A stretch of 64,000 nt of DNA from Candidatus Saccharimonadales bacterium (GTDB lineage: Bacteria > Patescibacteriota > Saccharimonadia > Saccharimonadales > 2-12-FULL-41-12): NCBI GenBank assembly GCA_025451045.1, contig JANWLD010000001.1, forward strand, positions 5,812-69,811. The letters are read 5' to 3'. Of this stretch, positions 9,922-55,690 are shown in pieces. The position numbers were made by a program, and so were the translations under genes. A model generated the notes under the pieces. The model saw only the letters and a list, made by a program, of their open reading frames with translations. It made no database searches and was not told the origin of the DNA. Numbering within the stretch: position 1 is the stretch's first letter; every line of letters begins with the position of its first letter.

Positions 9922-9928
9922 AAGCCAA

Positions 9929-9979: not shown

Positions 9980-9981
9980 GC

Positions 9982-9998: not shown

Positions 9999-10025
9999 TT
10001 CTTCTGTCGTTTCATACTATATACG

Positions 10026-10862: not shown

Positions 10863-10874
10863 TATGGTATCACA

Positions 10875-10907: not shown

Positions 10908-10924
10908 CTAAGAAACCGTAGATG

Positions 10925-11377
10925 TTAACCCTGCTGGCAAGTCGATGTGAAAGTACCTGCACCAGTTTCAGTTCCATAGACCACTACTACAGCTCTTGCC
11001 GGACCTCCTTGTGCCACGGTACCGTTACAAGTCGCCCCCGTGTAAACTTGGGCGTGGTCGGTAGTTTCTGCAGTTGTAGCCATAGCAGCTAAGTTCCAGT
11101 TACCGGCTCCTGCCGCTGGTGCATTGGCATAGTATCCAACGTTAGTAACTGCATCAAGCTGGGCTGCTGTAGGTAAAGTCCCGTTGTTATTTGAAGCATA
11201 CTCAGCCACCCCTCCTAGCAAAGATGATATATCATTCTTCCTTTGCGTGTTACGGCTGTTTCTTTGAAGCGCCGGTACCGCTAAGAATACTATAAGCAAG
11301 ATAAGCCCTGCTATTGCTAACACAATCAAGACTTCGATGATTGTGAAGCCTTTTTGTTGTTTTTGTAATTTTTTCAT
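10925..11377 (-). CDS. pilA: major type IV pilin
   Basis: 150 aa. MKKLQKQQKG|FTIIEVLIVLAIAGLILLIVFLAVPALQ. Strong promoter and RBS (GGTGAGGA) upstream, terminator downstream. Confidence 0.85.
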   Translation of the reverse strand: MKKLQKQQKGFTIIEVLIVLAIAGLILLIVFLAVPALQRNSRNTQRKNDISSLLGGVAEYASNNNGTLPTAAQLDAVTNVGYYANAPAAGAGNWNLAAMATTAETTDHAQVYTGATCNGTVAQGGPARAVVVVYGTETGAGTFTSTCQQG

Positions 11378-11418
11378 TATTTCCTCACCCTTTATACATT
11401 TAACTTCTTATGCTTTGA

Positions 11419-11447
11419 ATATTACTGCATGAAAATACTAAATGCAA
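11419..11447 (-). promoter_or_regulatory. sigma70-like promoter TTGCAT-17-TAATAT (pilA)
   Basis: -35 TTGCAT at 11447-11442, 17-nt spacer, -10 TAATAT at 11424-11419. The same hexamer pair occurs upstream of two MPEQ-family genes. Confidence 0.55.
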
Positions 11448-11455
11448 GCTTTTTT

Positions 11456-12676
11456 TTATTTAACTATGGTCTGGCCTGCCAAACCGTAGATTGGCAGAAG
11501 TACGGCCGCTACTACAATAAACGCGACTACACCTAATATAACCATCAGAACCGGCTCGATTATCGTTGAAATCGCCTTTATCTGGTTATCGACCTCTTTT
11601 TCGTAATAATCGGCAGTTTTTTCCAGCATATCTTCCAAAGCGCCCGATTCCTCCCCTATTCTAAGCATATTAGGTACCAGTACTAAAAAGTTCGGGTCGC
11701 CTTCCAGCGCAGTGGCCAGGGATTTGCCGCCCTTTACTTTCTCGATAGCGTTTTTAATCGACCTCTCTATATGCACATTGTTAATGGCCCGGCTGACCAC
11801 TTCCAGCATCTTGATAAGCGGTATTCCGCTGGAAACCAGCGTTGAACCGGTGCGCGCAAAACGAGCCATATAAACTTTCATAAACAACGGTCCAATCGGC
11901 GGGACGGTCATCTTGAGCTTGTCGATAACCTGTTTGCCCGGACCGGTACGGGCATAACGGGTAGTCGCGATAACAGCAATAATTATGAGTATTAATACCA
12001 CCCACCAGTACTTCGTGACAAAATGTGAAACACCTAAAAGAGCTTTGGTTATAAAAGGTAGGTTAGCGCCAGGGATGTCCTTGTAGATTACTTCCACTTG
12101 CGGCATGACTTTTACCACCATGAAGCCCACGACTCCGCCCATTACCAAAAGTACTATCGCCGGATAAGCCATAGCGCCGCGGATTTTACCGGCAATTTCG
12201 GCGTCCTTTTCCTGTTGGTTGGCGATGCGCTCCAAGGCGTTATCTAAAGTTCCAGACACTTCTCCAGCGGCAACCATGTTGATGTAAACATCATTAAAAA
12301 CCCTTGGATGCTGAGATAAAGCTTCAGACAAGGCTTTCCCGCCTTCTACATCGGTAATAATCTGGTTGATTACTACTTTGAACGCTTTGTTCTCGGTTTG
12401 GCTTACTACGTTGCGCAGGCTTTGGACCAAAGGCAGGCCGGCATTAATCAGCGTTGACATCTGGCGTGAAAAAATCACCTTGTCTTTGGTCGCAATACGG
12501 TTTCTGAATTTGGAAATAGGGTTAGAAGAAGGGCCAGTAAGCGGTTTTATCTCAAGAGGCGCCAAGCCTTCTTTGCGGATAAGTTTGGCGGCGGCGGCTT
12601 CGTTGTCGGCTTGTACTTCTGCTTTTATTTTTTGGCCGGTTGCCGGATCCCGCGCCGTATATGAAAAAGTTAACAC
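11456..12676 (-). CDS. pilC: type IV pilus platform protein (T2SS F family)
   Basis: 406 aa, duplicated GspF domains, 3 TM segments. GTG start with GGAGG RBS. Confidence 0.9.
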   Translation of the reverse strand: MLTFSYTARDPATGQKIKAEVQADNEAAAAKLIRKEGLAPLEIKPLTGPSSNPISKFRNRIATKDKVIFSRQMSTLINAGLPLVQSLRNVVSQTENKAFKVVINQIITDVEGGKALSEALSQHPRVFNDVYINMVAAGEVSGTLDNALERIANQQEKDAEIAGKIRGAMAYPAIVLLVMGGVVGFMVVKVMPQVEVIYKDIPGANLPFITKALLGVSHFVTKYWWVVLILIIIAVIATTRYARTGPGKQVIDKLKMTVPPIGPLFMKVYMARFARTGSTLVSSGIPLIKMLEVVSRAINNVHIERSIKNAIEKVKGGKSLATALEGDPNFLVLVPNMLRIGEESGALEDMLEKTADYYEKEVDNQIKAISTIIEPVLMVILGVVAFIVVAAVLLPIYGLAGQTIVK

Positions 12677-12695
12677 GTCGCAACCTCCGGTTGCT

Positions 12696-12768
12696 TAGGT
12701 TCTAGCGAATAGGGACTAGTGAATAGGCCAAACCCTAAAACCTCTAACCTATGACCTATGACCTTATG
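12696..12768. repeat. inverted pair of heptad arrays (TAG x5, then CCT x5)
   Basis: TAG at 12696, 12703, 12710, 12717, 12724. CCT at 12734, 12741, 12748, 12755, 12762. Followed by hairpin ATGATGT/ACATCAT at 12766-12792. Confidence 0.75.
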
Positions 12769-12793
12769 ATGTTGAGTAAAGCGAGACATCATT

Positions 12794-13876
12794 TTAGCTT
12801 CTCATTAACCTGTCTAATTCTTCTATATCTATGGCAAAGTTACGGGCTTCGTCATAAGTAATGGTACCGGCATGTATCAGGCTGACTAAAGTTTTGTCCA
12901 TGGATTGCATTCCATGTTCCGCGCCGGTTTGGATTACCGCGTCAAGCTGGTGGCTTTTGCCTTCTCGAACTATATTTCTTACGGCCGGAGTAGCTATCAG
13001 CACTTCTGCCGCCGCTATTCTGCCGCCGCCAATGGTAGGTACAAGCCGCTGGGCGCAAATGGCCATTAATATATTACTGAGCTGGGCTCGTATTTGCGGT
13101 TGCTGGTGGGGCGGGAACACGTCTATCATACGGTCAATACTCTGAGACGCGCTGTTAGTATGAAGCGTCGCGAACACAAGGTGCCCTGTTTCAGCGATAG
13201 TTATAGCCGCCGCGATAGTTTCCAAATCGCGCATTTCACCGATAAGAACCACATCGGGGTCCTGGCGCAGACTGCTACGAAGCGCGGCTGAAAACGAATA
13301 AGTGTCATAATGGACTTCACGCTGGACAACTACAGCTTTCTTGCTTTTGTGGGTGTATTCTATGGGGTCTTCAATCGTTACTATATGCGAAGGCCGCTCA
13401 CTGTTAATCTGGTCCACCAAAGCCGCCAAAGTCGTGGACTTGCCAGAGCCGGTTGGGCCGGTAACCAATACCAGTCCCCGTGGATATTCGGAAAACTTTT
13501 CTATGGTTTTGGGCAATCCCAGTTGGGCAATTGTACGGATTTCATTAGGAATTAACCTTAAAGCCGCCGCGAGGTTGCCGCGCTCATGGAAGGCATTGAC
13601 CCTGAATCGTCCAAGGTCGCCAAAAGCAAAGCTGAAATCAAATTCCTTGTCTTTGAGCAAAATCTGCTTTTGCTCATCGTCTAAAATAGCAAATATCAAC
13701 GTTTCGACGGACTCTTCTGTCAGCGCCGGCGCGCCATGGACGGCTATCAGACTGCCGTCGATCCGAAGCATTGGCGGCAAACCGACTTGAATATGCAAGT
13801 CCGAGGCGTTCTTTTTGATTACGTCTTCCAACAGTATTTCTATTTTCAGATCAGCTCCAGCCATGTTATATCCCAT
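12794..13876 (-). CDS. pilT: twitching-motility retraction ATPase
   Basis: 360 aa. Walker A GPTGSGKST, Asp box, His box ATLHTNSA, PilT-type length. Confidence 0.9.
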   Translation of the reverse strand: MGYNMAGADLKIEILLEDVIKKNASDLHIQVGLPPMLRIDGSLIAVHGAPALTEESVETLIFAILDDEQKQILLKDKEFDFSFAFGDLGRFRVNAFHERGNLAAALRLIPNEIRTIAQLGLPKTIEKFSEYPRGLVLVTGPTGSGKSTTLAALVDQINSERPSHIVTIEDPIEYTHKSKKAVVVQREVHYDTYSFSAALRSSLRQDPDVVLIGEMRDLETIAAAITIAETGHLVFATLHTNSASQSIDRMIDVFPPHQQPQIRAQLSNILMAICAQRLVPTIGGGRIAAAEVLIATPAVRNIVREGKSHQLDAVIQTGAEHGMQSMDKTLVSLIHAGTITYDEARNFAIDIEELDRLMRS

Positions 13877-13883
13877 CCTTCAT

Positions 13884-15680
13884 TTACGCGTTATCCTCCG
13901 CCGCCACGCGGTTAACTTCGGCTATTGAGGTATATCCGGCCAGTGCCTTAAGGTAACCGTCTTCTCTCATAGTTACCATGCCATTAGCTACCGCCGCTTT
14001 TTGTATTTCGGTGCTTGTGGAGTGTTTGAGTATCAGTTGTTGAATCATCTCATCCACCTGAAAGACCTCGTATAACCCCATGCGACCTTTGTACCCCCCT
14101 GGTGTCTCCGGGCTATCTTTACCCTTGAACAAAGTATAACCGTTTTGGCTGGCCAGAGGCAAGTCCGGGAAACCGAGATCTTCAATGACAGCTTTTCTTG
14201 AAGCCTCGTCCTTTGGTAGCAAGCGGCCGATACTTTTTTGTACGGCTTCCGTTTCGATAACATCGGACTGATATTTTTCCTTGCTGTCAGCTAGCCGGCG
14301 TACCAGCCGCTGGCCGATGACAGTATGCACGGTCGAGGCTATCAAAAACGGCTCTATCCCCATATCGAGCAACCGCGGCAAGATGCCCGCAGCCGAATTG
14401 GTATGAAGAGTAGAAAATACCAAGTGGCCGGTCAATGCGGCCTGTACAGCCAACGTAGCGGTTTCTTTGTCGCGGATTTCTCCAATCATTACCACATCGG
14501 GGTCCTGGCGCAGGATTGATCTTAGGCCAGACGCAAAGGTCAAGCCAACTTCCGGATTAACTTGTATCTGGTTAATCCCGTCCATTTTATATTCCACAGG
14601 GTCTTCAAGCGTAACGATATTTATAGTGTCATTTTTTATTTCCTGGATAAGCGCGTACAACGAAGTTGACTTGCCCGAGCCGGTCGGGCCGGATGTAAGT
14701 ATCATTCCGTTTGGTCTTTTAATACTTCTTCTAATGGTCCGAAGCGCGCGGCCATGATAGCCCATGTCTTCAAGCTTTAGGCTGGTGCCGGTCTTGTCCA
14801 GCAACCTGATAACAACTTGCTCCCCCCATACGACTGGCGATATAGCGATACGCAAATCAATAGCAGTATCCTGATCGATTGCCACAGTAAATCCGCCGTC
14901 TTGAGGTATTCTGTGTTCATCAATTTTTAGATTGCTCAAGATTTTTATTCGGGAAATCAATGGCGGTTCTGTGGATTTTGGAAGTTTCATTATTTCGCGC
15001 AAAACGCCGTCTATCCGACAGCGGATTTTTAGTTCATGTTCCAGCGGTTCAATATGGACGTCACTAGCGCGGTGCTTGGCGGCATATTCCAAAATAGTGG
15101 AAAGTGCCTTGCTGATTGGAGAATCTTCTACGATGGTTTTTATTTGGGTTTCAGCTTTGGTTTTGGTTTTGTCAACTAGCAGTTGCTGGACATCTATGGA
15201 GTCGCTCATTGCCTTGGCCACGTCTGCTTCTACATCGTCGGCATATTGGCGCAAGACTTGTCTTATACCTTGCTCGCTGGCTGTGTAAACTTTAATCGGG
15301 CGGTTTATCCTCTTCGCCAGATAATCCACGGCCTGGACGTTGTCCGCGTCCAACATGGCTACTACCAGCCTGCCCTTTATTTGTCCAAGCGGTACGGCCA
15401 TGTATCTTTCAGCTATTTCCTTTGGTATTACCCTTAGTAATCTTTTATCAATACGCGCGTCCATCAGGTTTACATACGGTATATGATTGACTTTCGCGAT
15501 AATCTTGGTCAAGGCTTCGTTGGGTAAATGGCCTTCCTTTACCAAAAATCCGAAAAAGGGCGTAGATGAAGTCTTGGCTTTTTCTTTAAGAACAGCCAAT
15601 TTAGCATCTGTAAGATACCCCTCTTTGACCAAGTTTTCTTCTACCATTTTCTGGCTAGCTACTGATAAAACACTACTCAT
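13884..15680 (-). CDS. pilB: type IV pilus assembly ATPase (GspE/PilB family)
   Basis: 598 aa. N-terminal GSPII-like domains, Walker A GPTGSGKST, STLHTNSAAG. ATG overlaps the stop of the upstream four-helix-bundle ORF (ATGA). Confidence 0.9.
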   Translation of the reverse strand: MSSVLSVASQKMVEENLVKEGYLTDAKLAVLKEKAKTSSTPFFGFLVKEGHLPNEALTKIIAKVNHIPYVNLMDARIDKRLLRVIPKEIAERYMAVPLGQIKGRLVVAMLDADNVQAVDYLAKRINRPIKVYTASEQGIRQVLRQYADDVEADVAKAMSDSIDVQQLLVDKTKTKAETQIKTIVEDSPISKALSTILEYAAKHRASDVHIEPLEHELKIRCRIDGVLREIMKLPKSTEPPLISRIKILSNLKIDEHRIPQDGGFTVAIDQDTAIDLRIAISPVVWGEQVVIRLLDKTGTSLKLEDMGYHGRALRTIRRSIKRPNGMILTSGPTGSGKSTSLYALIQEIKNDTINIVTLEDPVEYKMDGINQIQVNPEVGLTFASGLRSILRQDPDVVMIGEIRDKETATLAVQAALTGHLVFSTLHTNSAAGILPRLLDMGIEPFLIASTVHTVIGQRLVRRLADSKEKYQSDVIETEAVQKSIGRLLPKDEASRKAVIEDLGFPDLPLASQNGYTLFKGKDSPETPGGYKGRMGLYEVFQVDEMIQQLILKHSTSTEIQKAAVANGMVTMREDGYLKALAGYTSIAEVNRVAAEDNA

Positions 15681-16072
15681 TTGTTTTGACCTCCGTCAAA
15701 ACTAGGTTCTAGGTCATAGGTTTTAGGTTCTAGATTCTTATATAAGGAAAAAAGCATTTTCTGAATTTCCGTTAAACTGCCTATTAAATTACCGACTTCT
15801 CGCTTGTAAACATCTTGTGCAATCAATAGCTGGGTCTCGAGTTCTCCAGCTGAGCCGCGGGCTATATTTAAAAATTGCCTATACTCTTTTCTGCTATTCC
15901 TTTGATTTCCTTCGGCTATATTACTGGGTATTGAAACTGCGCATCGTTGCAATTGGCTTGATAGACCAAATTGCTCTGTTTTGGGTAGTTTGGCGGTAAA
16001 TTTATAGACATCCTTGGACAATTGAAAAGATTTCTGCCAAACAATTAAGTCTTTGTAAGAAGAAATAACCAT
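15677..16072 (-). CDS. four-helix-bundle protein (S23p / 23S rRNA intervening-sequence protein family, Avd-like)
   Basis: 131 aa. Family hallmarks LIVWQKS, SQLQRCAVSIPSNIAEG, ARGSAGELETQL. The C-terminal 15-18 aa (NLEPKTYDLEPSFDGGQNK) are read from the heptad array at 15703-15737. Confidence 0.85.
   Translation of the reverse strand: MVISSYKDLIVWQKSFQLSKDVYKFTAKLPKTEQFGLSSQLQRCAVSIPSNIAEGNQRNSRKEYRQFLNIARGSAGELETQLLIAQDVYKREVGNLIGSLTEIQKMLFSLYKNLEPKTYDLEPSFDGGQNK
15703..15737. repeat. heptad array, TAGG flavour (left bracket of the four-helix-bundle gene)
   Basis: TAG at 15703, 15710, 15717, 15724, 15731. Contains TAGGTTTTA at 15717-15725. Confidence 0.8.
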
Positions 16073-16114
16073 TAGTATTAACTATAACCTACCGTTAGCG
16101 TTGTATCCATAAAA

Positions 16115-16149
16115 CCTAACCCCTGTCCCCTACAACCTACTCCCTATTC
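16115..16149. repeat. heptad array, CCTA flavour (right bracket, inverted polarity)
   Basis: CCT at 16115, 16122, 16129, 16136, 16143. TAAAACCTA at 16110-16118 is the exact reverse complement of 15717-15725. Confidence 0.8.
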
Positions 16150-16150
16150 T

Positions 16151-16387
16151 TTAAAATGGTTGCGGATTAGTTGTGTCGCCTATCTGTATAAGCTTGGTCG
16201 GGTCTATGGCATTGTTGTTAAATACTGCCGGGTCAGGTGTTTGAAAATCCGCGTTTATTGGTTGGACAGTTTCAGCTGTAAGGTTACGTTGGCTAGCGGA
16301 AGTAAAGAATATTTTTGAAATCACCACAGAGAACACCGCCGCGAACACAGCAACTATGACAATTACCATGATGTCTTTGCGTCGCAT
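16151..16387 (-). CDS. small single-pass membrane protein (PilP position)
   Basis: 78 aa, TM IMVIVIVAVFAAVFSVVISKIFF. Start overlaps the upstream stop. The functional label comes from position only. Confidence 0.4.
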   Translation of the reverse strand: MRRKDIMVIVIVAVFAAVFSVVISKIFFTSASQRNLTAETVQPINADFQTPDPAVFNNNAIDPTKLIQIGDTTNPQPF

Positions 16388-17055
16388 TATTTCACTACCT
16401 CGCTTTTGACATTAAGGTTTTTTTCCGGCTGGAAGAAAGTTTTGGCTGTAATTGTAACTTTCAATTGCCCGCCCTGGCTTGTTAATGCAAGCTGATGTAT
16501 TTGCATCGGCCTGATTGAGCGCTCAAATAACTGCATCAATTCTTTTACTCGCTGGTCTCCGGTTGCAACTTCCACGCTGAAAGGCATTTCAACGGGTTTT
16601 GGCTCTTCCGAGGTACCTTTGGCGGATTGGCTCACTTCATCGTCATTACCGGTAATCGAAGTTATGCTGTAGTCGTGGTCTTTAAGAAGTTTTTCTATGC
16701 TGGTTGTTAGGGCCGGAAAGTCATATTTGCTTGGCAACGCATCTAGTATTATGCGCGGGTTATCCCCGTCCTTGTCGGCATCACCCTGTGGATTTCCTCC
16801 AAGTACATTGGTGGTTTCATTAGAAAACGCTTCGTAAGATGTAACTAGCTGGTCGGAAGCTGCCAAGTTATCCTTGAGGGTGTGGAGGGCTTTTTCCTTC
16901 TGCGATGAAACTTTGCTTTGGTATCTCATCTGCGAATAAAGCGCTTTGGAAGCTACTAGCGAAAATACCGCCAGAAAAGTAGCTATACCGATAGCCAAAA
17001 TTATCGTGGCATAAGCTTTGTCTATGGCCAGTTTCTTGGTTGAGAACTGCGGCAT
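16387..17055 (-). CDS. pilO: PilO-like pilus assembly protein
   Basis: 222 aa, N-terminal TM plus coiled-coil plus C-terminal domain. Contiguous with pilN/pilM (ATGA-type junctions). Confidence 0.5.
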   Translation of the reverse strand: MPQFSTKKLAIDKAYATIILAIGIATFLAVFSLVASKALYSQMRYQSKVSSQKEKALHTLKDNLAASDQLVTSYEAFSNETTNVLGGNPQGDADKDGDNPRIILDALPSKYDFPALTTSIEKLLKDHDYSITSITGNDDEVSQSAKGTSEEPKPVEMPFSVEVATGDQRVKELMQLFERSIRPMQIHQLALTSQGGQLKVTITAKTFFQPEKNLNVKSEVVK

Positions 17056-17792
17056 TAGTTACCTCCCCCTTGGTCAGGTTGTGGAACAAACAGGTTGCTA
17101 GGTTTTTCCGTTTCCGATCGGGTGGTGATTTTCTTTGGTATATTCAATTTTACTGCTTTGCCTTCGCTGTCGCCTTGCGCCAGGTTCTTTACGTTTGAGA
17201 AAATAGCCGGGTCAAAGGAAAACTGAAGTTCGTAGGTTATATCGCCCTGTCCTTGCTGGCTACCGACAGAGTTAACAGCAAATGACTGTAAGACGACGTT
17301 GCTGAACGCCTTGCCCTCGCTCGGGTTGTCGCCGGATACCTGGAAATCAGTAAACTTCAAAGTGTCGGCAAATTTATTAACCGTGCTAAGCGCGTCAGCA
17401 TTGCCCTTAATAACTATAGTGTTCGCATCAAAATCAACGTCAACATCGGAAATAGTCGCTTGCGAAGGAGTAGTTTGGACTAGATAATCAAACAGCCTGG
17501 AGCTAATCACCTTGTGTTCATGGAGCTCCGGCAAGCTGTTAAGTTGGTTTTGTATCGTCAATATTTTGTCCAAATCCTGTTTTTGTTTAAGCTCTTCCGT
17601 AGCCGACGCGATATCTTTGGTCAGTGCCGTAACATAATGCTTCTGTGAAAACCGCACATAGATAAACAGCGCGATAAAGATTACCAAAAAGAAAGCCGAG
17701 ATGATAGCCGAAAGCCCTATCATTAGGCGTTTTTGCCGCTTGGCGCGAATATAGTGAAGTTTTACGTCCGGCAGTAAGTTTAATTGCGCCAT
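17055..17792 (-). CDS. pilN: PilN-like pilus assembly protein
   Basis: 245 aa. The conserved N-terminal INLLP-type motif is present as LNLLPD, followed by a TM helix. Confidence 0.6.
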   Translation of the reverse strand: MAQLNLLPDVKLHYIRAKRQKRLMIGLSAIISAFFLVIFIALFIYVRFSQKHYVTALTKDIASATEELKQKQDLDKILTIQNQLNSLPELHEHKVISSRLFDYLVQTTPSQATISDVDVDFDANTIVIKGNADALSTVNKFADTLKFTDFQVSGDNPSEGKAFSNVVLQSFAVNSVGSQQGQGDITYELQFSFDPAIFSNVKNLAQGDSEGKAVKLNIPKKITTRSETEKPSNLFVPQPDQGGGN

Positions 17793-18832
17793 TATTCGTT
17801 TCTCTCCGCCAGTCCAACCGCTACGCTAAATGTATTTGATACGGCCATAAGTTCGTTTTGTTTCTGCTGGGGATAAGCAACCCCAGCCCACGCATTGCCG
17901 ATTTCCACCTCTATGCCAAATTTGTTAGCAATATACAGGGGAAACTCGGGCAAAGTCGAGGCCGCTCCGGACAAGACAATCCGTTCCATTTTGGCGTCCT
18001 GATACCGGCTTTGGAAGAACTTGATTGACTTGCTTATATCCGTAACCAGCAAATCAACCGTGTTGATAATCCCTTGGTAAATTTGTCCTTCTAGTTTTTC
18101 TTGGCTTAGTCCGAATTTGTAAACAAAATCTTTGGCTTGAACTTCATCTATATTAAGATTCTGGCTGGCCGCCCGGATAAAAGCTTCCGAGCCAGTTGGT
18201 ATGGAACGTGTAAGCCGGGGAATACCTTTCATAGTAATTACTATGTCGGTAGCTGTCTCCCCTACATCAACTAATAGATGGGGCGCTGTAGTTCCGGGAC
18301 GTATCAAAGACCGTGCCAAAGCCAAATTATCCGGCTCAAAGGCTATAACATTAAGGCCGATCCCTTCCAATATATCCAATCTCTTTTCAGCGAAGTCGTT
18401 CGATACGCTGGTTATTAGCACTTCAACCTTGTTAGCATCCACCGGCGAATCGCCCAAAAGGGCCCAGTCTATCTTGGACTCGGCAGGCGGCGTAGGTATA
18501 ATCGAATCCGCTTGATATTCAATAGTCTTTCCTAGCTCCGCCGGAGCCAGACGTTCAATATCAATAATGGAAGTAAAAACCCTTGATGATGGCAAGCCTA
18601 CGGCAACATCCTTGGCATGGATACCGGTAGTAGACAGAAGTTGTTTGATTGCTTGTGCGAGTTTCTGCTGGTCTGCTTTTGAGTCACTTTCGGAAGCTTT
18701 GCGTTCTATCGGGGCAGAGCCATAACGAAGAAGCTGTTTATTGCTCGGGGTGTTAGATAGTTGAACTACCCTAATACCGGTAGTACCAATATCAAGGCCA
18801 AAAAACTCATTTACCCCGCTCAATAAACTCAT
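17792..18832 (-). CDS. pilM: type IV pilus assembly ATPase-fold protein PilM
   Basis: 346 aa. Actin/FtsA-like fold start FGLDIGTTGIRVVQL. First gene of the pilMNO block. Confidence 0.85.
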   Translation of the reverse strand: MSLLSGVNEFFGLDIGTTGIRVVQLSNTPSNKQLLRYGSAPIERKASESDSKADQQKLAQAIKQLLSTTGIHAKDVAVGLPSSRVFTSIIDIERLAPAELGKTIEYQADSIIPTPPAESKIDWALLGDSPVDANKVEVLITSVSNDFAEKRLDILEGIGLNVIAFEPDNLALARSLIRPGTTAPHLLVDVGETATDIVITMKGIPRLTRSIPTGSEAFIRAASQNLNIDEVQAKDFVYKFGLSQEKLEGQIYQGIINTVDLLVTDISKSIKFFQSRYQDAKMERIVLSGAASTLPEFPLYIANKFGIEVEIGNAWAGVAYPQQKQNELMAVSNTFSVAVGLAERNE

Positions 18833-23362: not shown

Positions 23363-23941
23363 CTATTTATATTTTTTAGCTGTCTTTGCAAATATTTTCT
23401 CAGCTAGAACTTTGCCGCTTCTTAATACTTTTTGCTTTATTAAAACTCTTGCCTTGCCTTTTATATAAAAGTCGGAGTTTTTTGGCTCGTGAATACTTGG
23501 CAAATCCGCCGTGCCGGCTTCGCCTCCGGCATTTTCTACATAAATATTTACCCAATAACCAGTCGAGCTTACCCACTTACCGCCTTTGCGGCCTTCAAAT
23601 TGTGAAAAACCTGCGCGTACAAAACCAGCATCCACACATACTTGCGAATATGGCTCATAAAAAGCATGTAGTAGATTTATCTGCCTCATATATTTACCAG
23701 CGTGCAAGATTTTTGCCGCTCGTATTTCCGGCCGGATCAAGCCTTCTTCTAAGCATCCTTCTTTAAGGCTGGAGATTGTGGCTTCCGGTACATCTGCTGC
23801 TTGGACTGGTTCGGGGTTGGCTTGTTCATTAGCCGCTATTGCACCACCGACAAGACCAATGGTGCCAATTAAGCCAATGGCTAACTTTTCTTTCGTAGTT
23901 TGCTTTAGGGTTTCAAATCGTGATGGGTCTTGCTCGGGCAT
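23363..23941 (-). CDS. MPEQDPSRFE-family membrane-anchored protein, paralog A
   Basis: 192 aa. MPEQDPSRFETLKQ, a TM helix, EQANPEP, then a Cys-containing C-domain. Clearly alignable with 24802-25581 (EATISSLK.ECL.EGL.RPEI...LPSIHEP). Confidence 0.65.
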   Translation of the reverse strand: MPEQDPSRFETLKQTTKEKLAIGLIGTIGLVGGAIAANEQANPEPVQAADVPEATISSLKEGCLEEGLIRPEIRAAKILHAGKYMRQINLLHAFYEPYSQVCVDAGFVRAGFSQFEGRKGGKWVSSTGYWVNIYVENAGGEAGTADLPSIHEPKNSDFYIKGKARVLIKQKVLRSGKVLAEKIFAKTAKKYK

Positions 23942-23964
23942 ATAAAAACTCCGTTACTTCTAAT

Positions 23965-23993
23965 ATATTACCAGAATTAACAAAAATATGCAA
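23965..23993 (-). promoter_or_regulatory. promoter TTGCAT-17-TAATAT
   Basis: -35 at 23993-23988, -10 at 23970-23965. The 5' UTR (..AACGGAGTTTTT..ATG) is conserved with the copy at 25608-25636. Confidence 0.5.
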
Positions 23994-24055
23994 ACCTTAT
24001 TTCAGGCTTGTATTCTTTTATCCTCTTTTCTTCCTGCAAATATGATCTAATAAGG

Positions 24056-24169
24056 TTAGCGGCTTGGTTGTTGTCGCCAAGATTTTTGTACTGATGTATA
24101 GGTTAGGGTTCGACTTTCCTTCGTGCTTTGCTTGATAATTTCGAATTTGGAGGAATCTTGTTCGGGCAT
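24056..24169 (-). pseudogene. truncated remnant of an MPEQ-family gene
   Basis: ATG 24169 gives MPEQDSSKFEIIKQSTKES, matching the family N-terminus. It then diverges and stops after 37 aa, with no TM or C-domain. Confidence 0.6.
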
Positions 24170-24182
24170 TGGTTAAAAGCGA

Positions 24183-24782
24183 TTAACAGTAGTCGGACTT
24201 AGAGCCAACTCTTATTGTTTTACTAGTTTGAGCAAGTATATGTCTGTTTTTTGTAACCTTATTGATAAAAGTAACAGTCCTAGAACTTTTTTTATCCCCT
24301 GGGACACAGACACTTACCCCCGGGTATCCTTCGTTTGAGTAAACTCTTGCATCTTTTTTCTGAGCTTCTAATCCATCAGCTATCCCTGTATCGGCAGTGG
24401 TTTTACGTACTAGCGGGAAACATTTATTTCTATAAATTCCATGACATGCCACAATTTTAACTTTTACTCTGGCATTAAACGCAACGCTATTGGCTTCAAG
24501 AATTTCAGTGCACTCACCGGAGGCACCCGGATAATTGCCTTCTACTTCAATAACCATGCTTTTACCGCTTAAGCCGATGCGTTCAGCTTTAGTCCCGGTC
24601 GGCGGCTTTGCCAATTGCTCGGCGCAATCTTGAAGGGTTGGGGTTGCTTCGGCGGCAATGGCTGGTTCGGGGTTGGCTTGTTCAGTTACGGCTACTCCGC
24701 CGGCTAGGCTGACTATGCTTAAGCCAATGGCTAATTTTTCTGTGGCTGTGTGCCTTAGGGCTTCGAATCGGGATTCGGGCAT
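24183..24782 (-). CDS. MPEQ-family membrane-anchored protein, paralog B (divergent C-domain)
   Basis: 199 aa. MPESRFEALRH, TM, EQANPEP. The C-domain differs from A and C. Confidence 0.6.
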   Translation of the reverse strand: MPESRFEALRHTATEKLAIGLSIVSLAGGVAVTEQANPEPAIAAEATPTLQDCAEQLAKPPTGTKAERIGLSGKSMVIEVEGNYPGASGECTEILEANSVAFNARVKVKIVACHGIYRNKCFPLVRKTTADTGIADGLEAQKKDARVYSNEGYPGVSVCVPGDKKSSRTVTFINKVTKNRHILAQTSKTIRVGSKSDYC

Positions 24783-24801
24783 TTGTGCTACCTAAATTAA
24801 C

Positions 24802-25581
24802 TTAAATAACTATATGGCCTTTTTTGTGCGAAATTTTGGCCTTTATTGCAAATGTCTTTTCAGCTACGACTTTGCCGTTTTTATTTACTACTCTGCTTTT
24901 TTCCAATACTCTGGCACGCTCTCCGTGTTTTACATAGTAGTCGGCGTCTCTAGGTTCGTGAATACTTGGTAATTCAGTAAAGCCTGCTACGTGAGTATTG
25001 ATATTATTTATAGTCACCCAATCCCCAGATAAACTTCTCCATTTACTATCTCCGGAACCTTTGGCTTGAAACATGCCTACGGCACTAAGTTCAAATTTAC
25101 CGTCGCATTTTTCAGACAAAGGTTTAAAATCTTCCTTCAATACGTTTACTTGCCTTAAGTACTTTCCTGCTCGAAATACAGTAGCTTCTTCTATTTCCGG
25201 GCGGGTCAATCCTTCTTTTATACATTCCTGCTTCAAGCTTGAGATTGTGGCTTCCGGGTTTTCGTCATTAGCAAGTCGTCCTTCTGTTGAGGAGACACCG
25301 CCTGTTTTGTGCTTGCTTGAATGTTTCGAGCTAACACCGCCCATGGCAGCCGTATTTCGACCGGTATTCTTATTGTGATGTGTGGTTTTAATAGATGGTC
25401 CAAGCCCACCGGACAGAGCCTCTTGGTTATGTCCGCCGTACGCAACTGGTTGTTCCGCGTCAGCTACTGCCACCAGCCCCAAGGTTGCGCCAAGGCCCAA
25501 AGCTGTGATTTCGCCAATAGCTTTTAGCCTATTAATATTTTGTTTTAACGATTCAAATCGTGATGGGTCCTGTTCAGGCAT
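24802..25581 (-). CDS. MPEQDPSRFE-family membrane-anchored protein, paralog C
   Basis: 259 aa. Same N-terminus and C-domain as paralog A, with an extra Gly/His/Ser-rich linker. Confidence 0.65.
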   Translation of the reverse strand: MPEQDPSRFESLKQNINRLKAIGEITALGLGATLGLVAVADAEQPVAYGGHNQEALSGGLGPSIKTTHHNKNTGRNTAAMGGVSSKHSSKHKTGGVSSTEGRLANDENPEATISSLKQECIKEGLTRPEIEEATVFRAGKYLRQVNVLKEDFKPLSEKCDGKFELSAVGMFQAKGSGDSKWRSLSGDWVTINNINTHVAGFTELPSIHEPRDADYYVKHGERARVLEKSRVVNKNGKVVAEKTFAIKAKISHKKGHIVI

Positions 25582-25607
25582 CGGTAAAAACTCCGTTTAT
25601 TAACGAT

Positions 25608-25636
25608 ATATTACCAGATTTAATAAGTTTATGCAA
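25608..25636 (-). promoter_or_regulatory. promoter TTGCAT-17-TAATAT
   Basis: -35 at 25636-25631, -10 at 25613-25608. Confidence 0.5.
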
Positions 25637-32277: not shown

Positions 32278-32305
32278 TTTCGCTCCTTTTCAGTCGCTTA
32301 GTTTA

Positions 32306-32369
32306 TAGGGGTTAGGTTTTAGGGGTTAGGTAGTTTGCTAGAACCTAGTCCCTAGCACCTTTAACCTAC
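32306..32369. repeat. inverted pair of heptad arrays (rpsR|efp junction)
   Basis: TAG at 32306, 32313, 32320, 32327. CCT at 32344, 32351, 32358, 32365. 32325-32367 is identical to 32625-32667. Confidence 0.8.
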
Positions 32370-32574: not shown

Positions 32575-32598
32575 TTATGTTCTCCTTTCAGTTGAACT

Positions 32599-32669
32599 TA
32601 GTTATTAGTTGCTAGTTGTTAGTCGTTAGGTAGTTTGCTAGAACCTAGTCCCTAGCACCTTTAACCTGT
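32599..32669. repeat. inverted pair of heptad arrays (ssb|rpsR junction)
   Basis: TAG at 32599, 32606, 32613, 32620, 32627. CCT at 32644, 32651, 32658, 32665. Confidence 0.8.
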
Positions 32670-33140: not shown

Positions 33141-33164
33141 TTTGTTCTCCTTTCAGTCGAACTT

Positions 33165-33241
33165 AGGTTATAGCTGCCAGGTTCTAGGTTAGAGTTGTCT
33201 TCTTTTACTATAACCTATCCACTCGAACCTGTAACCTCGAT
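33165..33241. repeat. inverted pair of heptad arrays (rpsF|ssb junction)
   Basis: AG at 33165, 33172, 33179, 33186, 33193 (AGGTT x3). AACCT at 33212, 33226, 33233. A 13-nt T-rich centre. Confidence 0.75.
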
Positions 33242-47377: not shown

Positions 47378-47617
47378 CTAAACTTCAAATTTTTCTATGT
47401 GGTCAGTTAAGTTTTTTAAGAATTCTTTCGCCTGTGCTCTCGTGAGCGCAATCCGGCTGACAATATTTTGCTGTTCAGCTCCCGGCATAGCCTGTGAGAA
47501 GTTCAATGTAACGACGTTCTCGTTCGAACCGATAAGATATCCGTCCGCATAAAGAACCGGTACTTTGTTTACATCCACATTAAAATTCACCTTTTTCTGG
47601 TCTTTATCATTAGCCAT
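47378..47617 (-). CDS. DUF3467-like small protein
   Basis: 79 aa. Pattern YADGYLIGSNENVVTLNFSQ...VSRIALTRAQAKEFLKNL fits DUF3467. Confidence 0.5.
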   Translation of the reverse strand: MANDKDQKKVNFNVDVNKVPVLYADGYLIGSNENVVTLNFSQAMPGAEQQNIVSRIALTRAQAKEFLKNLTDHIEKFEV

Positions 47618-47682
47618 AGTTACTCCTTTCCGTAAGCTCTATTATCGCAAATTTAAAAATAAAAATCTCAGATTATGCTCAT

Positions 47683-47766
47683 GCTTGCCTCGTAGTGAGC
47701 CTTCGAGCCTATTTGCCTTTGGCAAATACTATGCGTAGCAACTCGAAGATCTACTACGGGGCTTGC
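47683..47766. repeat. hairpin element copy 1 (MITE-like or structured-RNA candidate)
   Basis: Outer stem 47691-47707 / 47742-47758. Inner perfect hairpin ATTTGCC-TTT-GGCAAAT at 47711-47727. GCTTGC occurs at both ends (47683, 47761). Confidence 0.6.
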
Positions 47767-47793
47767 AAAAGTGAACTATAAATTGTAGAGTTT

Positions 47794-48423
47794 TTGGTAA
47801 TGAATCTTGTTGCTACTGCTGAAAGGGAGCGGGCTAAAGCTGCTCCAGAATCTGCTGAGTCTTTATTTAGACTAGCAAAAGGCAACCGCTTGCTTGCTAT
47901 GTTTAAAAAGTTGGAAGAATTAGATAGGAAGTTCAAAGGCGTGATAATCCCTACCGACAAAGACCGTGCGGCAAGTCCTCGCTTCGTAATAGTTAAAGGC
48001 AAGGAACTACGCCATCAGGCCAGGCATCTTCGTAAAGCTGAACTGGGCGACGAAAACTTTTATGAGAATCTAACCGCTAAAATTCCAAAACTGGCTAAGC
48101 CCAAAAATATCGTCATAGACCATACGGATATAACCCCGAGTGGGAGAGGCCATCATTTATCTATAGGCTTTGACGAAGACAGTACTCAAGCCCTAGACGA
48201 AGAACGATGTGAGGTGCTTACGGCACTGGAAGAAATGGCTGACGTTCCAGACGATGGAGGATTAGATTGGCATCTGTATAATCCTGATATGTTGGCTATG
48301 TTTGTAAGATCTTCCGTACCGAAAAAAGAATCAGCTATCGAAACCGTTGCGAATTATATACAAGCCCATTTACCTATGAAAATTGTACTTGAACCTATAT
48401 ATAACCCCGTGGACCAAGTGTAA
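47794..48423 (+). CDS. hypothetical protein
   Basis: 209-aa ORF, no family recognised. Convergent with polA. Confidence 0.45.
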   Translation: MVMNLVATAERERAKAAPESAESLFRLAKGNRLLAMFKKLEELDRKFKGVIIPTDKDRAASPRFVIVKGKELRHQARHLRKAELGDENFYENLTAKIPKLAKPKNIVIDHTDITPSGRGHHLSIGFDEDSTQALDEERCEVLTALEEMADVPDDGGLDWHLYNPDMLAMFVRSSVPKKESAIETVANYIQAHLPMKIVLEPIYNPVDQV

Positions 48424-52061: not shown

Positions 52062-52631
52062 TTATAAGTACTGCCTAAGGTCTTGTTCGATAGTCAATTT
52101 AAGTTTTTCTTTATCGTTGGAATTGTTTTCGATAAACTCGTCGCATAACTTTTTTACCTCGCCCACTGCCAAAGTTGCTTCATCACCGTACACATTCATT
52201 TCATCCTGTTCTTCGCGCAAGAATTCCTCGTAAGTTTTGCTGTCTTCTGCGCTTCGGTTGCGACTGGTTATTCTCTTATACCTAATTTCCGGCTCAGCAT
52301 CTACCCAGACCATCACTCCGCCAAGCCGATGTATTTGTTCAACTTCGCCAATATTGCGAATGCTTGAAATAACAAGGCCTTTGTATTTTTGTGCTTCTGA
52401 ATTGAAAATCTCAATTGCTTTATCAACCAATACGGCCAATCCGAATTCGCGCCGCCATTGGTCGCCAAGCTCACGCATGTTTTCACGTTTTATCGGTTTG
52501 TTTCGTTTTTTTAGCTCATCGCGCAGGATATCAGTAACTGAAACGAACAAGTATCCCCAGTCTTCCTGCAAAATCTGGCCGACCGTATCTTTTCCGCTGC
52601 CGTTCGTCCCGGCAATCCCAATAATCTTCAT
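52062..52631 (-). CDS. P-loop nucleotide/nucleoside kinase-like protein
   Basis: 189 aa. Walker A GIAGTNGSGKDT and the overall size of the dephospho-CoA / dNMP kinase-like folds. Substrate unknown. Confidence 0.55.
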   Translation of the reverse strand: MKIIGIAGTNGSGKDTVGQILQEDWGYLFVSVTDILRDELKKRNKPIKRENMRELGDQWRREFGLAVLVDKAIEIFNSEAQKYKGLVISSIRNIGEVEQIHRLGGVMVWVDAEPEIRYKRITSRNRSAEDSKTYEEFLREEQDEMNVYGDEATLAVGEVKKLCDEFIENNSNDKEKLKLTIEQDLRQYL

Positions 52632-52656
52632 CTGTTATATTCTAACAGTAATAGCT

Positions 52657-52680
52657 TTATTTGATGTAGTCGTGGAGTTT
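52657..52680 (-). repeat. displaced duplicate of the rpoD 3' end
   Basis: Minus strand AAACTCCACGACTACATCAAATAA (KLHDYIK*) versus the real rpoD end AAACTCCACGACTATATAAAATAA (52804-52781). 22/24 identical, and both differences are synonymous. Confidence 0.75.
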
Positions 52681-52776
52681 GCCCAGTAGTGAGCTTTCGT
52701 GGATATCTCCGCCAAGTGGCGGGGATACTTGGCTTTGCACTTGCAAAGCCGCACGAAAGTCTACTACTGGGTTTGC
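52677..52776. repeat. hairpin element copy 2
   Basis: Outer stem 52682-52701 / 52752-52771. Two inner hairpins at 52705-52726 and 52731-52750. GTTTGC at both ends (52677, 52771). Confidence 0.6.
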
Positions 52777-52780
52777 AGGC

Positions 52781-53875
52781 TTATTTTATATAGTCGTGGA
52801 GTTTTTTGGCATCTTTGTGTTTTCTGAGCTTGGCTAACGCTTTGGCTTCAATCTGTCTTATACGCTCGCGGGTAACTGAAAATTCCTGGCCGACTTCTTC
52901 CAGCGTATGGCTTTTGCCATCTTCCAACCCGAAACGCAGCTTCAAAATCTTCTGTTCGCGTTCGGTCAGGCCAGAAAGCATGTCTTTAACATGTTCTTTG
53001 AGCAAACTGCCGGTTGCTGACTCTTCGGGGCTGACGGTGTCCTCGTCCTCGATGAAATCACCCAGCACACTGTCTTCTTCATCATCGCGCACACTGGCAT
53101 CCAGCGAGTGGATATCCTGCTTAATCTTCATGATGTGCTCAACCTTGGCAACATCCATTTCCATCGCTGTAGCGATTTCTTCGTTGGTCGGTTCGCGGTT
53201 AAGTTCTTGGGTCAGTCGCCTCTGAGTCCTGAGCAGTTTATTAATCGTTTCAAACATATGCACCGGAATTCGGATTACCCTAGCCTGATCGGCAATTGCG
53301 CGGGTAATCGCCTGTCTAATCCACCAAGTCGCATAAGTAGAAAATTTAAATCCTTTGTCCGGGTCAAACTTCTCTACTGCGCGAAGTAATCCCGTATTGC
53401 CTTCTTGGATAAGGTCCAAAAGATCCAATCCGCGGCCAACGTAGCGCTTGGCGATACTGACAACTAAGCGCATATTGGCTTCGGCCATCTGGTCTTTTGC
53501 CCGCTTATCACCCGCGACAACTTTTTGAGCTAGGGCCAGTTCTTCATCGGGTTTAAGCAGCGGAATCTTACCGATTTCGCGAAGGTACAAACGAACCGAA
53601 TCATCAGCGATATCATCCATGTATACCTTGTCGTCAAGCTCTAACTCTTCGCCGTCATCACCGGTCCAGTCATCGCTCATACTAACCGCGCTGCCGGTAA
53701 CCTGTATGTTCAAATCCGCGAGTTCGGAATAAAGTGAATCCAAAATTTCGGCGTTTTCCGGAGTTTCCGGAATCTTCTCAAAGATGACGTCCTGGTCAAT
53801 CTTACGGTCTTTTTTAGCTTTTTTAAGTAGTTCCTTTTTAGCTTCTTCCAGCTGTTGCTTCTTGTCTTCCGTCAT
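52781..53875 (-). CDS. rpoD: RNA polymerase primary sigma factor
   Basis: 364 aa. Regions 1.2-4.2 including [19 protein letters not shown] and the region 4 HTH. Confidence 0.95.
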
Positions 53876-53883: not shown

Positions 53884-55641
53884 TTACGTTTCTTTTGTCT
53901 GATTAAGTAATTTGTCCAAATCACGAACACGGGCCAAAATTTGTTCATGTTTTGCTTCGTCGGTACTGGCAAGCAGCGCCGATAATTTCTTTTTTTGGTC
54001 TTTTACAAAATATTCAATGATTTTTGCTCTCAAGCGCGCCGCTTCGTATTGAAGCTCCAGCGTATCCACTTTGGCGTAAAGTTCTTCGAACTGTAATACC
54101 AATATTTTAACATAATCGCTGATGTTCTCCAACTTAGAGAGTTTATCCGTGTCGCTGTTGAAATCCGGGTTTGCCTTCAGAAAATCCAATATTTTTACCT
54201 GTTCTGGCTTAACTAGCATATGCTCTGACAAAATATCCAGATAATTGCGTACAGTTGGCACCATCAGGCTTAGGCATAGCAACCTGTCAATCACGCGGGC
54301 CTTATCATGCTCCTCTTTGGAAATAACGTTTGAGGCCATGCTGGGTTTTTTCAATCTCTGAACAAAGTTATCTTTGGTCCCGGCCAGCTTACTGCGAAAA
54401 GCCGCGGCATCAATCCCGGACATCTCTGACACCAGTTGGACATAATGGTCTTGTTCTACCGGATCTTCAATATCTTTTATTACCGCCGTTAATTTGCCGG
54501 TAAATTTCTTCTTTCCCTGCGCGGTTTTAATATCAAACTCATCTTTGTATACATTTATCAGCCAATCGACCGCGTATTCCGCGTCAGAAATCGCCTTTTC
54601 CCATAATTTCGGGTCTTTCTTTATTAGCTCGTCAGGGTCTTTGCCCTCCGGGATACTGATGATGCTCAAATCCACGCCGGCTTTTGAGGCTACCGGTATG
54701 GCCCGCTCTGCCGCTTCCAAGCCAGCCCTGTCCTGGTCAAATGCCAGTCGGACATTGGGCGAAAATCTCGACAGTGTTTTCAGTTGGTATTCGGTCATAG
54801 CCGTCCCGGCGCTGGCTACCACTTGCTTGTACCCAGCCTGATGCGACGCGATTACATCCAAATTGCCCTCGGCAACTACTCCATAATCTTTGTCACGAAT
54901 TGCCTGTTTGGCCAGATGAAGCCCATACAAGTGCCGGCTCTTGTCATACAGCGGCGTGCTAGGCGTGTTGATATATTTCGGCGCGTTATTGTCTTCAGCC
55001 AACAATCGCGCCGTAAAGCCTATCGGATTGCCCACAGAGTCGCATAGCGGCACCATGATTCGCCCGCGAAACATATCAAACGACCGGCCGCCCCGCTTGC
55101 TACTAAGACCAGCCAGCTTCAGTTCATTCTCGCTGTAGCCTTTTTTGCGCAGGAAATTGGTTAGCGCGCTGCCATTATCAGGACTGTAGCCTAGTTGAAA
55201 ATCAAGCATTGTCTGCTTGGAAAAACCGCGTTTCTTTCTAATATACTCCAGCGCTTCTGAGTTTTGGACTAAGTGTTTTTGGTAAAATTTGACCGCTGAG
55301 CTTATGGCTCCCTGGAGTTTTTGTTTATCCACTCCGGGCTTGCCTGATGAACCGCTTTTGAACTGTTCCAAGTCCACGCCGGCCTTGCGAGCCAGCAGTT
55401 CCAACGCGCCCCTGAAATCTAATCCTTCAACCTCTTGGATAAAAGTAAACATATCGCCGCCCCTGCTGGAAGAAAAATCATGCCATATCTGCTTCTCCGG
55501 ACTAACTATAAAACTCGGCGTTTTCTCATTAGTAAACGGACTTAGCCCCTTGAAGTTGCGGCCGGTGCGTTTTAACTTCACATATTCGCTGACTACGTCC
55601 TCGATACCCAGCCGGGCCTTTACCTCACTCACCGCATCCAT
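53884..55641 (-). CDS. dnaG: DNA primase (zinc ligands of the N-terminal domain all substituted)
   Basis: 585 aa. Has NEKTPSF, the RNA-polymerase core and TOPRIM (EGNLDVIA). The zinc-ribbon positions read S34, T37, D55, S58. Confidence 0.9.
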
Positions 55642-55648
55642 ACCTCTA

Positions 55649-55690
55649 AGGTTATAGGTTATAGGTTATAGGTTCAAGAATAAGAATTAA
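55649..55690. repeat. tandem heptad array AGGTTAT
   Basis: AGGTTAT x3 (55649-55669), then AGGTTCA, then degenerate AGAATAA GAATTAA. Starts 8 nt upstream of the dnaG ATG. Confidence 0.85.

Follow-up and report, generated by a model that had tools for sequence, protein, structure and literature searches.

A family of palindromic MITE-like elements in Patescibacteria and a repeated rpoD gene end

Why does a bacterial gene for the primary sigma factor end twice? In a 64-kb stretch of contig JANWLD010000001.1 from a Saccharimonadales bacterium (the window), the last codons of rpoD occur once at the end of the gene and once more on the far side of a short hairpin, here called E2, in front of a kinase-like gene. 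A first-pass annotation had proposed that the hairpin integrated into the very end of rpoD while supplying or regenerating a functional 3′ end, as integrative elements do at their attachment sites. We found that E2 is a member of a previously undescribed family of small, non-coding palindromic elements of Saccharibacteria and other Patescibacteria, which resemble miniature inverted-repeat transposable elements (MITEs). The proposal thus stood as far as the insertion of a mobile-type element is concerned, but not in the restoration of the gene end: the ordinary footprint of the family is a target duplication of 5–6 bp, and among 17 family copies tested, only the rpoD copy is flanked by a long repeat of unique sequence. 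We infer that the second rpoD tail is neither part of the element nor a product of its normal insertion, and is instead a one-off by-product.

The rpoD–kinase junction and its second tail

The genes at this locus run on the minus strand in the order dnaG (53884–55641), rpoD, an intergenic insert and a P-loop kinase-like gene. The 3′ end of rpoD reads AAA AAA CTC CAC GAC TAT ATA AAA TAA, and its stop codon is followed in turn by GCCT, GCAAAC, the 88-nt hairpin, a second GCAAAC, TCCACGACTACATCAAATAA, a 25-nt spacer and the kinase ATG. The features of the junction are as follows.

52781–53875, minus strand: rpoD, primary sigma factor, 364 amino acids (aa), ending ...KKLHDYIK* (from the translation)
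52781–52804, minus strand: tail A, AAACTCCACGACTATATAAAATAA, the functional last seven codons and stop of rpoD (from sequence reading and translation)
52771–52776, minus strand: left target hexamer GCAAAC, 4 nt (GCCT) past the rpoD stop; left half of the target-site duplication
52683–52770, minus strand: core of E2, 88 nt, CCAGTAGTAGACTTTCGTG-[hairpin]-[hairpin]-CACGAAAGCTCACTACTGG, a three-way junction (from the fold, the inverted arms and the covariance model)
52677–52682, minus strand: right target hexamer GCAAAC, a perfect repeat of 52771–52776
52657–52680, minus strand: tail B, AAACTCCACGACTACATCAAATAA, a displaced non-coding copy of the rpoD end (22 of 24 positions identical to tail A)
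52632–52656, minus strand: 25-nt spacer, AGCTATTACTGTTAGAATATAACAG, between tail B and the kinase start codon (from sequence reading)
52062–52631, minus strand: P-loop kinase-like gene, 189 aa, AAA_18/AAA_17 (from a domain search)

The window RpoD has the Sigma70 r1_2, r2, r3 and r4 domains and is 82–95% identical to 120 Saccharibacteria RpoD proteins. Those few with a source name are labelled Candidatus Saccharibacteria or Patescibacteria, which places the window in a Saccharibacterium. Most of these homologues end in KLHDYIK, so both tails come from a genuine rpoD end, and the upstream copy, which keeps this family-wide C terminus, is the functional one. Tail A is, stop codon aside, identical to the rpoD tail of the relatives L002/L003 and L105 (related loci are numbered L001 onwards).

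Within the window, the 24-mer AAACTCCACGACTAYATMAAATAA has only two matches, at 52804–52781 and 52680–52657 on the minus strand, with zero expected by chance (100 shuffles, up to three mismatches allowed). This bears out the repeat seen in the first-pass annotation, as well as its reading of the two differences, TAT/TAC and ATA/ATC, as synonymous third-position changes and its placing of the tail B stop 25 nt upstream of the kinase-like gene's ATG. Its finer points needed correction. The block read as GGC AAA CTC begins at 52683 rather than 52686, and the supposed indel of one Lys codon (GCC AAA AAA against GGC AAA) is not rpoD homology: GGGCAAAC consists of the last stem G–C pairs of the element plus the flanking target hexamer, and reads GGGCAAGC in most other copies. 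A resemblance to the rpoD tail suggested for the flank of the other family copy in the window (47775–47800) comes to 15 of 30 positions, which is inside the range found when all flanks are compared in pairs (mean 11.2, s.d. 2.2, maximum 19) and is therefore attributable to chance.

The starts of the two tails are separated by 124 nt, so tail B is out of frame with rpoD. The sequences 3′ of the two stop codons are unrelated (GCCTGCAAAC versus AGCTATTACTG), codon usage does not discriminate between the tails, and the final four bases of the right hexamer (AAAC) double as the first four of tail B. The spacer contains TGTTAGAAT, which by eye resembles an extended −10 promoter element that the promoter scan did not report; promoter and terminator predictions around the E2 site were at chance level.

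An empty site in relatives was the check that the first-pass annotation had suggested for an insertion. We compared 89 related rpoD loci, made up of the nine that encode the closest RpoD proteins (91–95% identity) and 80 from the Joint Genome Institute (JGI). Downstream of rpoD, neither the element nor another tail is present in any of them (the tail was sought over 4 kb with up to six mismatches), and in many, where the start is visible, the kinase gene begins 0–30 nt past the rpoD stop. This comparison shows that the element together with the tail repeat is a derived and unique arrangement. A second tail-like 24-mer in L001 (18 of 24) is at chance level by a rough estimate (about 0.5 expected). 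The spacer next to tail B has no significant homologue among the 89 junctions (score 10 versus a null maximum of 9.6), and the idea that it is a second spacer type was dropped on that score.

Close relatives have other insertions at the same junction, which makes it a hot spot. L001 carries a 2.5-kb insert with three genes, one encoding a Peptidase_M15_4 protein (L001:1398–3953); L002/3 a 235-nt hairpin-rich insert (L002:4099–4333); L006/8 a 537-nt insert in which a 170-aa gene runs antisense and overlaps the rpoD stop (L006:4099–4635); and L009 a 173-nt hairpin-rich insert.

A distinct, recurrent two-hairpin motif (for example ATGAGAGAACCGGGATAGGTTCTCTCATCGCGCGGGCAAAATGGAATACATTTTGTCCGG) lies past the rpoD stop in many Saccharibacteria lineages, among them L009 (1409–1560), L027, L034, L063, L089, L096 and L102, and in L007/L009 it starts directly 3′ of CGGCAAGC. 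It may be a conserved 3′ untranslated region, a leader structure or a second repeat family.

A family of inserted palindromes

E2 is predicted to fold into a three-way junction (−53.9 kcal/mol, z = −8.1). Its 20-nt inverted arms, CCCAGTAGTAGACTTTCGTG and CACGAAAGCTCACTACTGGG, are 85% complementary, and it scores 81 bits against the covariance model of the family. In Rfam 15, the window gave a tRNA only; the best score over the element came from RT-18, with 14 bits (threshold 41.3; E = 7.8), and nothing matched in nine related loci. A scan of a genome collection with one genome per species, using the 22-base pattern GTAGTAGA-N40-70-GCTCACTACNNGGCAA, returned 16 loci, all from Patescibacteria and nearly all from Saccharibacteria, where about two were estimated by chance. 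Further copies came from a regular-expression search and the covariance model applied to 739 kb of related loci. The full copies number 19, all in Patescibacteria and mostly in Saccharibacteria, in addition to one inverted copy and several shorter variants. A scan of viral contigs gave 59 matches, all at chance level and none with the stem. There are two copies in the 64-kb window and two in each of four other assemblies.

The core of the 19 full copies is non-coding and 73–91 nt long, too short to hold a gene. Its outer stem, CCnGTAGTAGAC...GCTCACTACnGG, is almost invariant, even in a Nealsonbacteria genome. Across 18 aligned copies the stem reads CCnGTAGTAG-A-CTTTCGAG...CTCGAAAG-CT-C-ACTACnGG as DNA, or CCnGUAGUAG-A-CUUUCGAG / CUCGAAAG-CU-C-ACUACnGG in RNA letters, with two fixed unpaired bases, A and C, in every copy. 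Pairing is kept in 99.1% of outer-stem cells, with compensatory double changes at five pairs; the covariation score of 0.185, compared with 0.061 in shuffles, was reached by none of 500. The inner segment forms exactly two hairpins in all 18 copies (mean z = −4.3), with a mean identity of the interior sequences of only 53%, and between the near-identical paralogues L020a and L020b, one inner hairpin differs by a double change from C–G to T–A. Folding energies and G–U counts revealed few G–U pairs on either strand and no consistent strand bias. Because copies also occur in both orientations, a DNA-level or strand-independent palindrome fits better than an RNA gene on one strand.

How do the copies reach their sites? 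GCAAGC or a variant of it is found on both sides of nearly every copy. Hexamers that depart from the consensus are matched on the two sides: GCAAAC twice at rpoD, where it forms a perfect 6/6 direct repeat around E2, GCAAAGC twice in L016 and GCAAGG twice in L024. Since the near-identical L020a and L020b carry different flanks (GCAACG twice and GCAAGC twice, respectively), the hexamer comes from the target and not from the element. A comparison of empty and filled sites was available in the spacer between pilC and a pilin gene, where the window has a single GCTTGC and the orthologous L022 and L025 have GCTTGC-E-GCTTGC (E denoting the element), with right flanks that align across all three. In L018, two opposed elements abut with one shared hexamer (GCAAGC-E-GCAAGC-E(inverted)-GCAAGC). 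The unoccupied site and the second family member in the window are the following.

11444–11449, minus strand: unoccupied target site, single GCTTGC, 6 nt past the pilC stop (from the empty/filled comparison)
47683–47766, minus strand: second family member, E1, with its core at 47689–47760 and GCAAGC at 47761–47766 and 47683–47688 (covariance model, 79 bits)

These comparisons show that the element inserts at a GCAAGC-like hexamer, often a few bases past a stop codon, and duplicates 5–6 bp of it; with one empty/filled case examined, the exact length lies somewhere between 4 and 6 bp. GCAAGC itself is not over-represented in the window (20 occurrences versus a mean of 15.6 per hexamer), which ruled it out as an uptake-sequence-like motif.

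In its genomic traces, the family thus behaves like a MITE with a preferred target: its members are short and non-coding with inverted repeats, the target duplication is single in the empty site, and the copies are multiple and polymorphic in their presence. No autonomous relative that shares these inverted repeats and encodes a transposase was found. The first-pass annotation had suggested looking for larger elements carrying the hairpin and a transposase or integrase; in 781 kb of Patescibacteria sequence, no transposase-sized unit is bounded by the arms, and close matches to both arms occur only as pairs 43–70 nt apart.

Relative to neighbouring genes, copies lie in either orientation, often 10–30 nt past a stop codon and also in divergent intergenic regions. 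Orthologous copies are kept across species in L011/L016/L024 and in L022/L025. Two extra copies are in frame within coding sequence: one at L056:4806–4905, between dnaG and rpoD, inside the N-terminal rpoD coding region (...KPGSRLSSRS...), and a 51-nt mini-version at L017:2009–2059, near the start of a 207-aa open reading frame (ORF). The two copies are read in one and the same frame (CCn GGT AGT AGA). L082, tried as an empty site for the L056 copy, was too divergent, and GCTAACTACCCGGCAA at 39639 in the window, tried as a family copy, is a chance match within the PNPase gene.

E1 has diverged from E2 and sits between an orphan 207-aa gene (47800–48423, plus strand) and a DUF3467 gene (47378–47617, minus strand). 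The closest relative contig, L165, has polA, 19 nt and DUF3467, with neither E1 nor the orphan gene, and both E1 and E2 are absent from the closest relative contigs (L001 and L165). In two other loci anchored on DUF3467 (L166 and L167), the upstream genes are unrelated and provide no empty site for E1.

Three further observations touch on the family. The orphan gene beside E1 has one database match only, an identical one, and looks like a recent gene insertion. The 12-mer GCAAGCATGAGC occurs eight times in the 781 kb, with one ATGAAC variant, where about 0.09 are expected by chance (window 47677–47688, minus strand; L001:3916; L010:4757 and 5178; L018; L019:4355; L034; L166:2261). Four of these sites are on the 3′ side of element copies and five stand alone in intergenic DNA, one of them in the divergent intergenic region of L001 directly before the kinase gene, beyond the 2.5-kb insert; the 12-mer might serve as a favoured target context or as a regulatory motif. 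On the Patescibacteria contig L015 (2475–2710), tandem mini-hairpins of about 45 nt (CCCCAGTAGTACAAATCCTTCGGATTTGACTACGGGG) are interleaved with one larger family member and may be a minimal form of the same family.

Origin of the second rpoD tail

If the tail repeat were the target duplication of the element, it would disappear on excision. Removing E2 and one GCAAAC in silico leaves rpoD-TAA-GCCT-GCAAAC-TCCACGACTACATCAAATAA-AGCTATT...(25 nt)...kinase ATG, and because both tails remain, the repeat is not that duplication. The boundaries of the family also fail to coincide with the 24-nt repeat: the four non-family bases GCCT lie between tail A and the left hexamer, and the start of tail B falls within the right one. 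The score of the rpoD flanking repeat was reached by no shuffle; the one other long flanking repeat, in L015, consists of neighbouring mini-hairpins and not of unique sequence.

We tentatively favour an illegitimate join between two alleles of the junction. A single join at 4–5 nt of microhomology, (C)AAAC, would have linked an rpoD–kinase junction carrying the post-stop GCAAAC, with the element present or not, to a second junction allele broken inside its rpoD tail, between ...AAAAAAC and TCCACG.... A naturally competent cell taking up DNA that finds homology at one end only would provide the setting. The product would keep a complete rpoD upstream and the original stop-to-kinase junction downstream, and a junction this compact probably tolerates no other kind of product. 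The natural competence of Saccharibacteria (PMC10633639) lends plausibility to homologous integration from one side, closed by a microhomology joint. The 4-nt overlap between right hexamer and tail B and the unrelated post-stop sequences are consistent with this join. The side of tail A looks native, because close relatives carry G[CT]AAGC two bases past the rpoD stop (TAA/TAG followed by CGG[CT]AAGC in L004/5 and L007/9). That both tail differences are synonymous supports two functional alleles, as the first-pass annotation had supposed in assigning one copy to a different allele. The idea is plausible but weakly backed: for a pair of random substitutions, the probability that both are synonymous is about 0.03, rising to at most about 0.1 when transitions alone are counted.

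Several points weigh against this account and the mobile element within it. Neither postulated parental allele was found, and nothing matched when JGI metagenomes were scanned with a pattern joining an rpoD tail to the element; rpoD DNA of the nearest relatives is only about 80% identical, too distant for a test of mosaicism; and AAAC is so short that the position of the microhomology could be a coincidence. The E2 site is known from assembled sequence and not from reads. The hexamer statistics are partly biased because the pattern used to collect the copies demanded GGCAA at the 3′ side. Among 40 window ORFs scanned, there is no transposase and the sole recombinase is of the Xer-like tyrosine type, which leaves the family without a linked transposase. 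The compensatory changes and the conserved orthologues (L011/L016/L024) would also fit a function selected by the host rather than ongoing mobility.

The repeat might instead be older than the element. In that case the last 30 nt of rpoD (GCCAAAAAAC TCCACGAC...TAA) would have been duplicated within one lineage, and the relic, as the only dispensable DNA in a very tight junction, would have drifted from AAA to TGC, creating GCAAAC, and gained two third-position changes before the element inserted with its usual 6-bp duplication. A single lineage suffices for this order of events, which we regard as possible but rather unlikely. Once the element and one hexamer are removed, the two 30-nt units (GCCAAAAAAC...TAA and GCCTGCAAAC...TAA) are identical at 25 of 30 positions, the GCC past the first TAA matches the start of the unit, and the perfect hexamer repeat fits normal insertion into an existing site. 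Against this, the required boundaries, between GAT and GCC and between TAA and AGC, have no microhomology; three adjacent substitutions are needed in the relic; a drifting relic should gain mostly non-synonymous changes, whereas both tail changes are synonymous; and the G[CT]AAGC of relatives means that the GCAAAC beside tail A need not stem from AAAAAAC. An integrative unit that brought its own rpoD 3′ end and recombined site-specifically within the 24-nt identity, as islands targeting tRNA genes do, would account for the attL/attR form of a repeat, an element and a repeat with an intact upstream gene end, and the window does hold an Xer-like tyrosine recombinase gene (5241–6158). We consider such a unit very unlikely: the other tested copies lack a flanking repeat of the adjacent gene end, GCCT intervenes between hexamer and repeat, and the footprint of the family is a short target duplication. 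In addition, the recombinase is 46 kb distant, with no integrase or transposase beside either copy among the ORFs scanned, and the junction of rpoD tail and element recurs in neither the JGI metagenome scan nor the 89 related loci.

Selection by the host bears on the element more than on the repeat. E2 could be a structured RNA or DNA signal, possibly a domesticated repeat, that acts as an RNase III-type processing site, as an mRNA-stabilising or terminating hairpin between cistrons or as a protein-binding site, the tail duplication being incidental. In its favour are the strong compensatory variation seen in each of the three helices, the unchanging bulged A and C, and the retention of orthologous copies by different species (L011/L016/L024 and L022/L025); copies also often follow stop codons by 10–30 nt, and the outer stem persists even in Nealsonbacteria. 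Nevertheless, a signal without mobility seems quite unlikely to us, given copies in both orientations and in divergent intergenic regions, the scarcity of G–U pairs on either strand, which points to DNA-level or strand-independent pairing, and the marks of insertion (presence/absence polymorphism, hexamer duplication, the in-frame copies of L056 and L017, and tandem and inverted copies). It also leaves the tail repeat unexplained, and is compatible with the illegitimate join without excluding it. A chimeric assembly of two strain variants is the least likely source of the second tail, and a highly improbable one. The genome is probably metagenome-assembled or from a co-culture, and strain mixtures are common; however, the 4–5 nt (AAAC) shared at the putative joint would be far below any assembler k-mer, a repeat matching at 22 of 24 positions would be too short and divergent to collapse or expand, and the flanking genes are intact and in conserved order.

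A bolder reading, which we think unlikely, would make the element more than a decaying MITE: a selected, structure-specific site across Patescibacteria, either a folded single-stranded DNA recombination substrate, like attC or the ends of IS200/IS605, or a domesticated three-way-junction RNA. A lineage-specific protein would read the bulged A and C, and the hairpin itself, or its cleavage at the GCAAGC hexamer, could actively drive joins at microhomologies by which essential genes such as rpoD have their ends duplicated.

Relation to known systems and other features of the window

Correia elements of Neisseria, enterobacterial repetitive intergenic consensus sequences or intergenic repeat units (ERIC/IRU), RUP and BOX repeats and Rickettsia palindromic elements are the bacterial MITEs and palindromic repeats nearest in kind. 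The Patescibacteria element shares with them a length of about 100 nt, the absence of coding capacity, long terminal inverted repeats and a stable hairpin, several copies per genome with presence/absence polymorphism between relatives, and a short target duplication at a preferred site next to gene ends; the in-frame coding copies of L056 and L017 recall the Rickettsia elements in particular. It differs in being a three-way junction whose inner hairpins vary by compensation while a 20-bp outer stem stays near-invariant across genera. This variable interior within a near-invariant stem is the reverse of what simple decay from a master copy would leave. The element has no known partner transposase, and the likeness is one of description and not of sequence comparison.

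Repetitive extragenic palindromes (REPs) are single hairpins of 20–40 nt with an unpaired GTAG and no target duplication, associated with the REP-associated tyrosine transposases (RAYTs, also TnpA-REP). Similar to REPs and to elements derived from IS200/IS605, our element has a conserved GTAG/CTAC at the foot of the hairpin. Its strict Watson–Crick pairing is consistent with recognition as folded single-stranded DNA, it lies just past genes in either orientation, and the tandem and inverted pairs of L018 resemble bacterial interspersed mosaic elements. By contrast, its GTAGT is paired with ACTAC, it forms a three-way junction of about 90 nt with three helices, and its flanking hexamer varies with the target in paralogues, as in a true duplication rather than an element-encoded cleavage site; no Y1/HUH transposase gene was found among the 40 window ORFs scanned. 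Length, paired GTAG and hexamer duplication thus set it apart from the REP/RAYT class.

Islands in tRNA and tmRNA genes and prophages likewise have a gene end on both sides with the upstream copy functional. At rpoD, however, the repeat is limited to one of the 17 tested copies, lies off the element boundaries, has no linked or adjacent integrase and comes with a short target duplication, which does not correspond to att sites. Integron attC sites are bounded by inverse core sites (RYYYAAC...GTTRRRY), belong to gene cassettes and are recombined by IntI. The element has in common with them conserved stem ends, fixed unpaired bases and a variable terminal structure. Its ends are CCnGTAG...CTACnGG with a direct GCAAGC repeat, unlike attC, and neither GTTRRRY nor RYYYAAC/GTTRRRY cores were found. 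A cassette-like reading of the orphan gene with E1 was rejected, as there is no second core on the polA side.

For the tail repeat, the nearest known process is homology-facilitated illegitimate recombination in natural transformation, described in Acinetobacter and Streptococcus. There too, a one-sided anchor and a joint at 3–10 nt of microhomology can duplicate or delete recipient sequence. The rpoD case differs in that it is read from sequence alone, with no parental alleles observed. A passage in PMC6382021 mentions the process.

The genomes of Saccharibacteria and other Patescibacteria are tiny and tightly packed, and the literature that we searched contained no description of MITEs or such repeat elements in them. 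The family provides a defined, searchable element, with an invariant stem, a GCAAGC target and a 5–6-bp duplication, that marks insertion hot spots. It can sit in frame inside genes, including the RpoD N terminus in one lineage, and may influence expression between cistrons. The rpoD case illustrates how an essential gene comes through a rearrangement where the junction has hardly any DNA to spare: only products with a full coding end persist. This makes the case a useful curiosity and possibly a strain marker, not a new mechanism of gene-end restoration.

The tyrosine recombinase gene (5241–6158, plus strand; Phage_integrase and SAM-like N-terminal domains) lies about 580 nt from a tRNA-Arg(CCT) gene (4587–4661, minus strand) and adjoins a type IV pilus gene cluster (about 6159–18832). 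It could encode a housekeeping Xer protein or mark the edge of an integrated element. At 23363–25636, three adjacent genes (192, 199 and 259 aa) without a Pfam match share stretches of 53–113 nt that are 66–84% identical, and are a small tandem paralogue family. TAGG-rich repeats (TAGGTTATAGGTTATAGG, CTTAGTT.TAGG..TAGG) occur at 12694–12764, 15703–15727, 32297–32367, 32597–32667, 33143–33188 and 55648–55672. All are intergenic, one lies just upstream of dnaG, and a related AACTAGG repeat is found past rpoD in L040.

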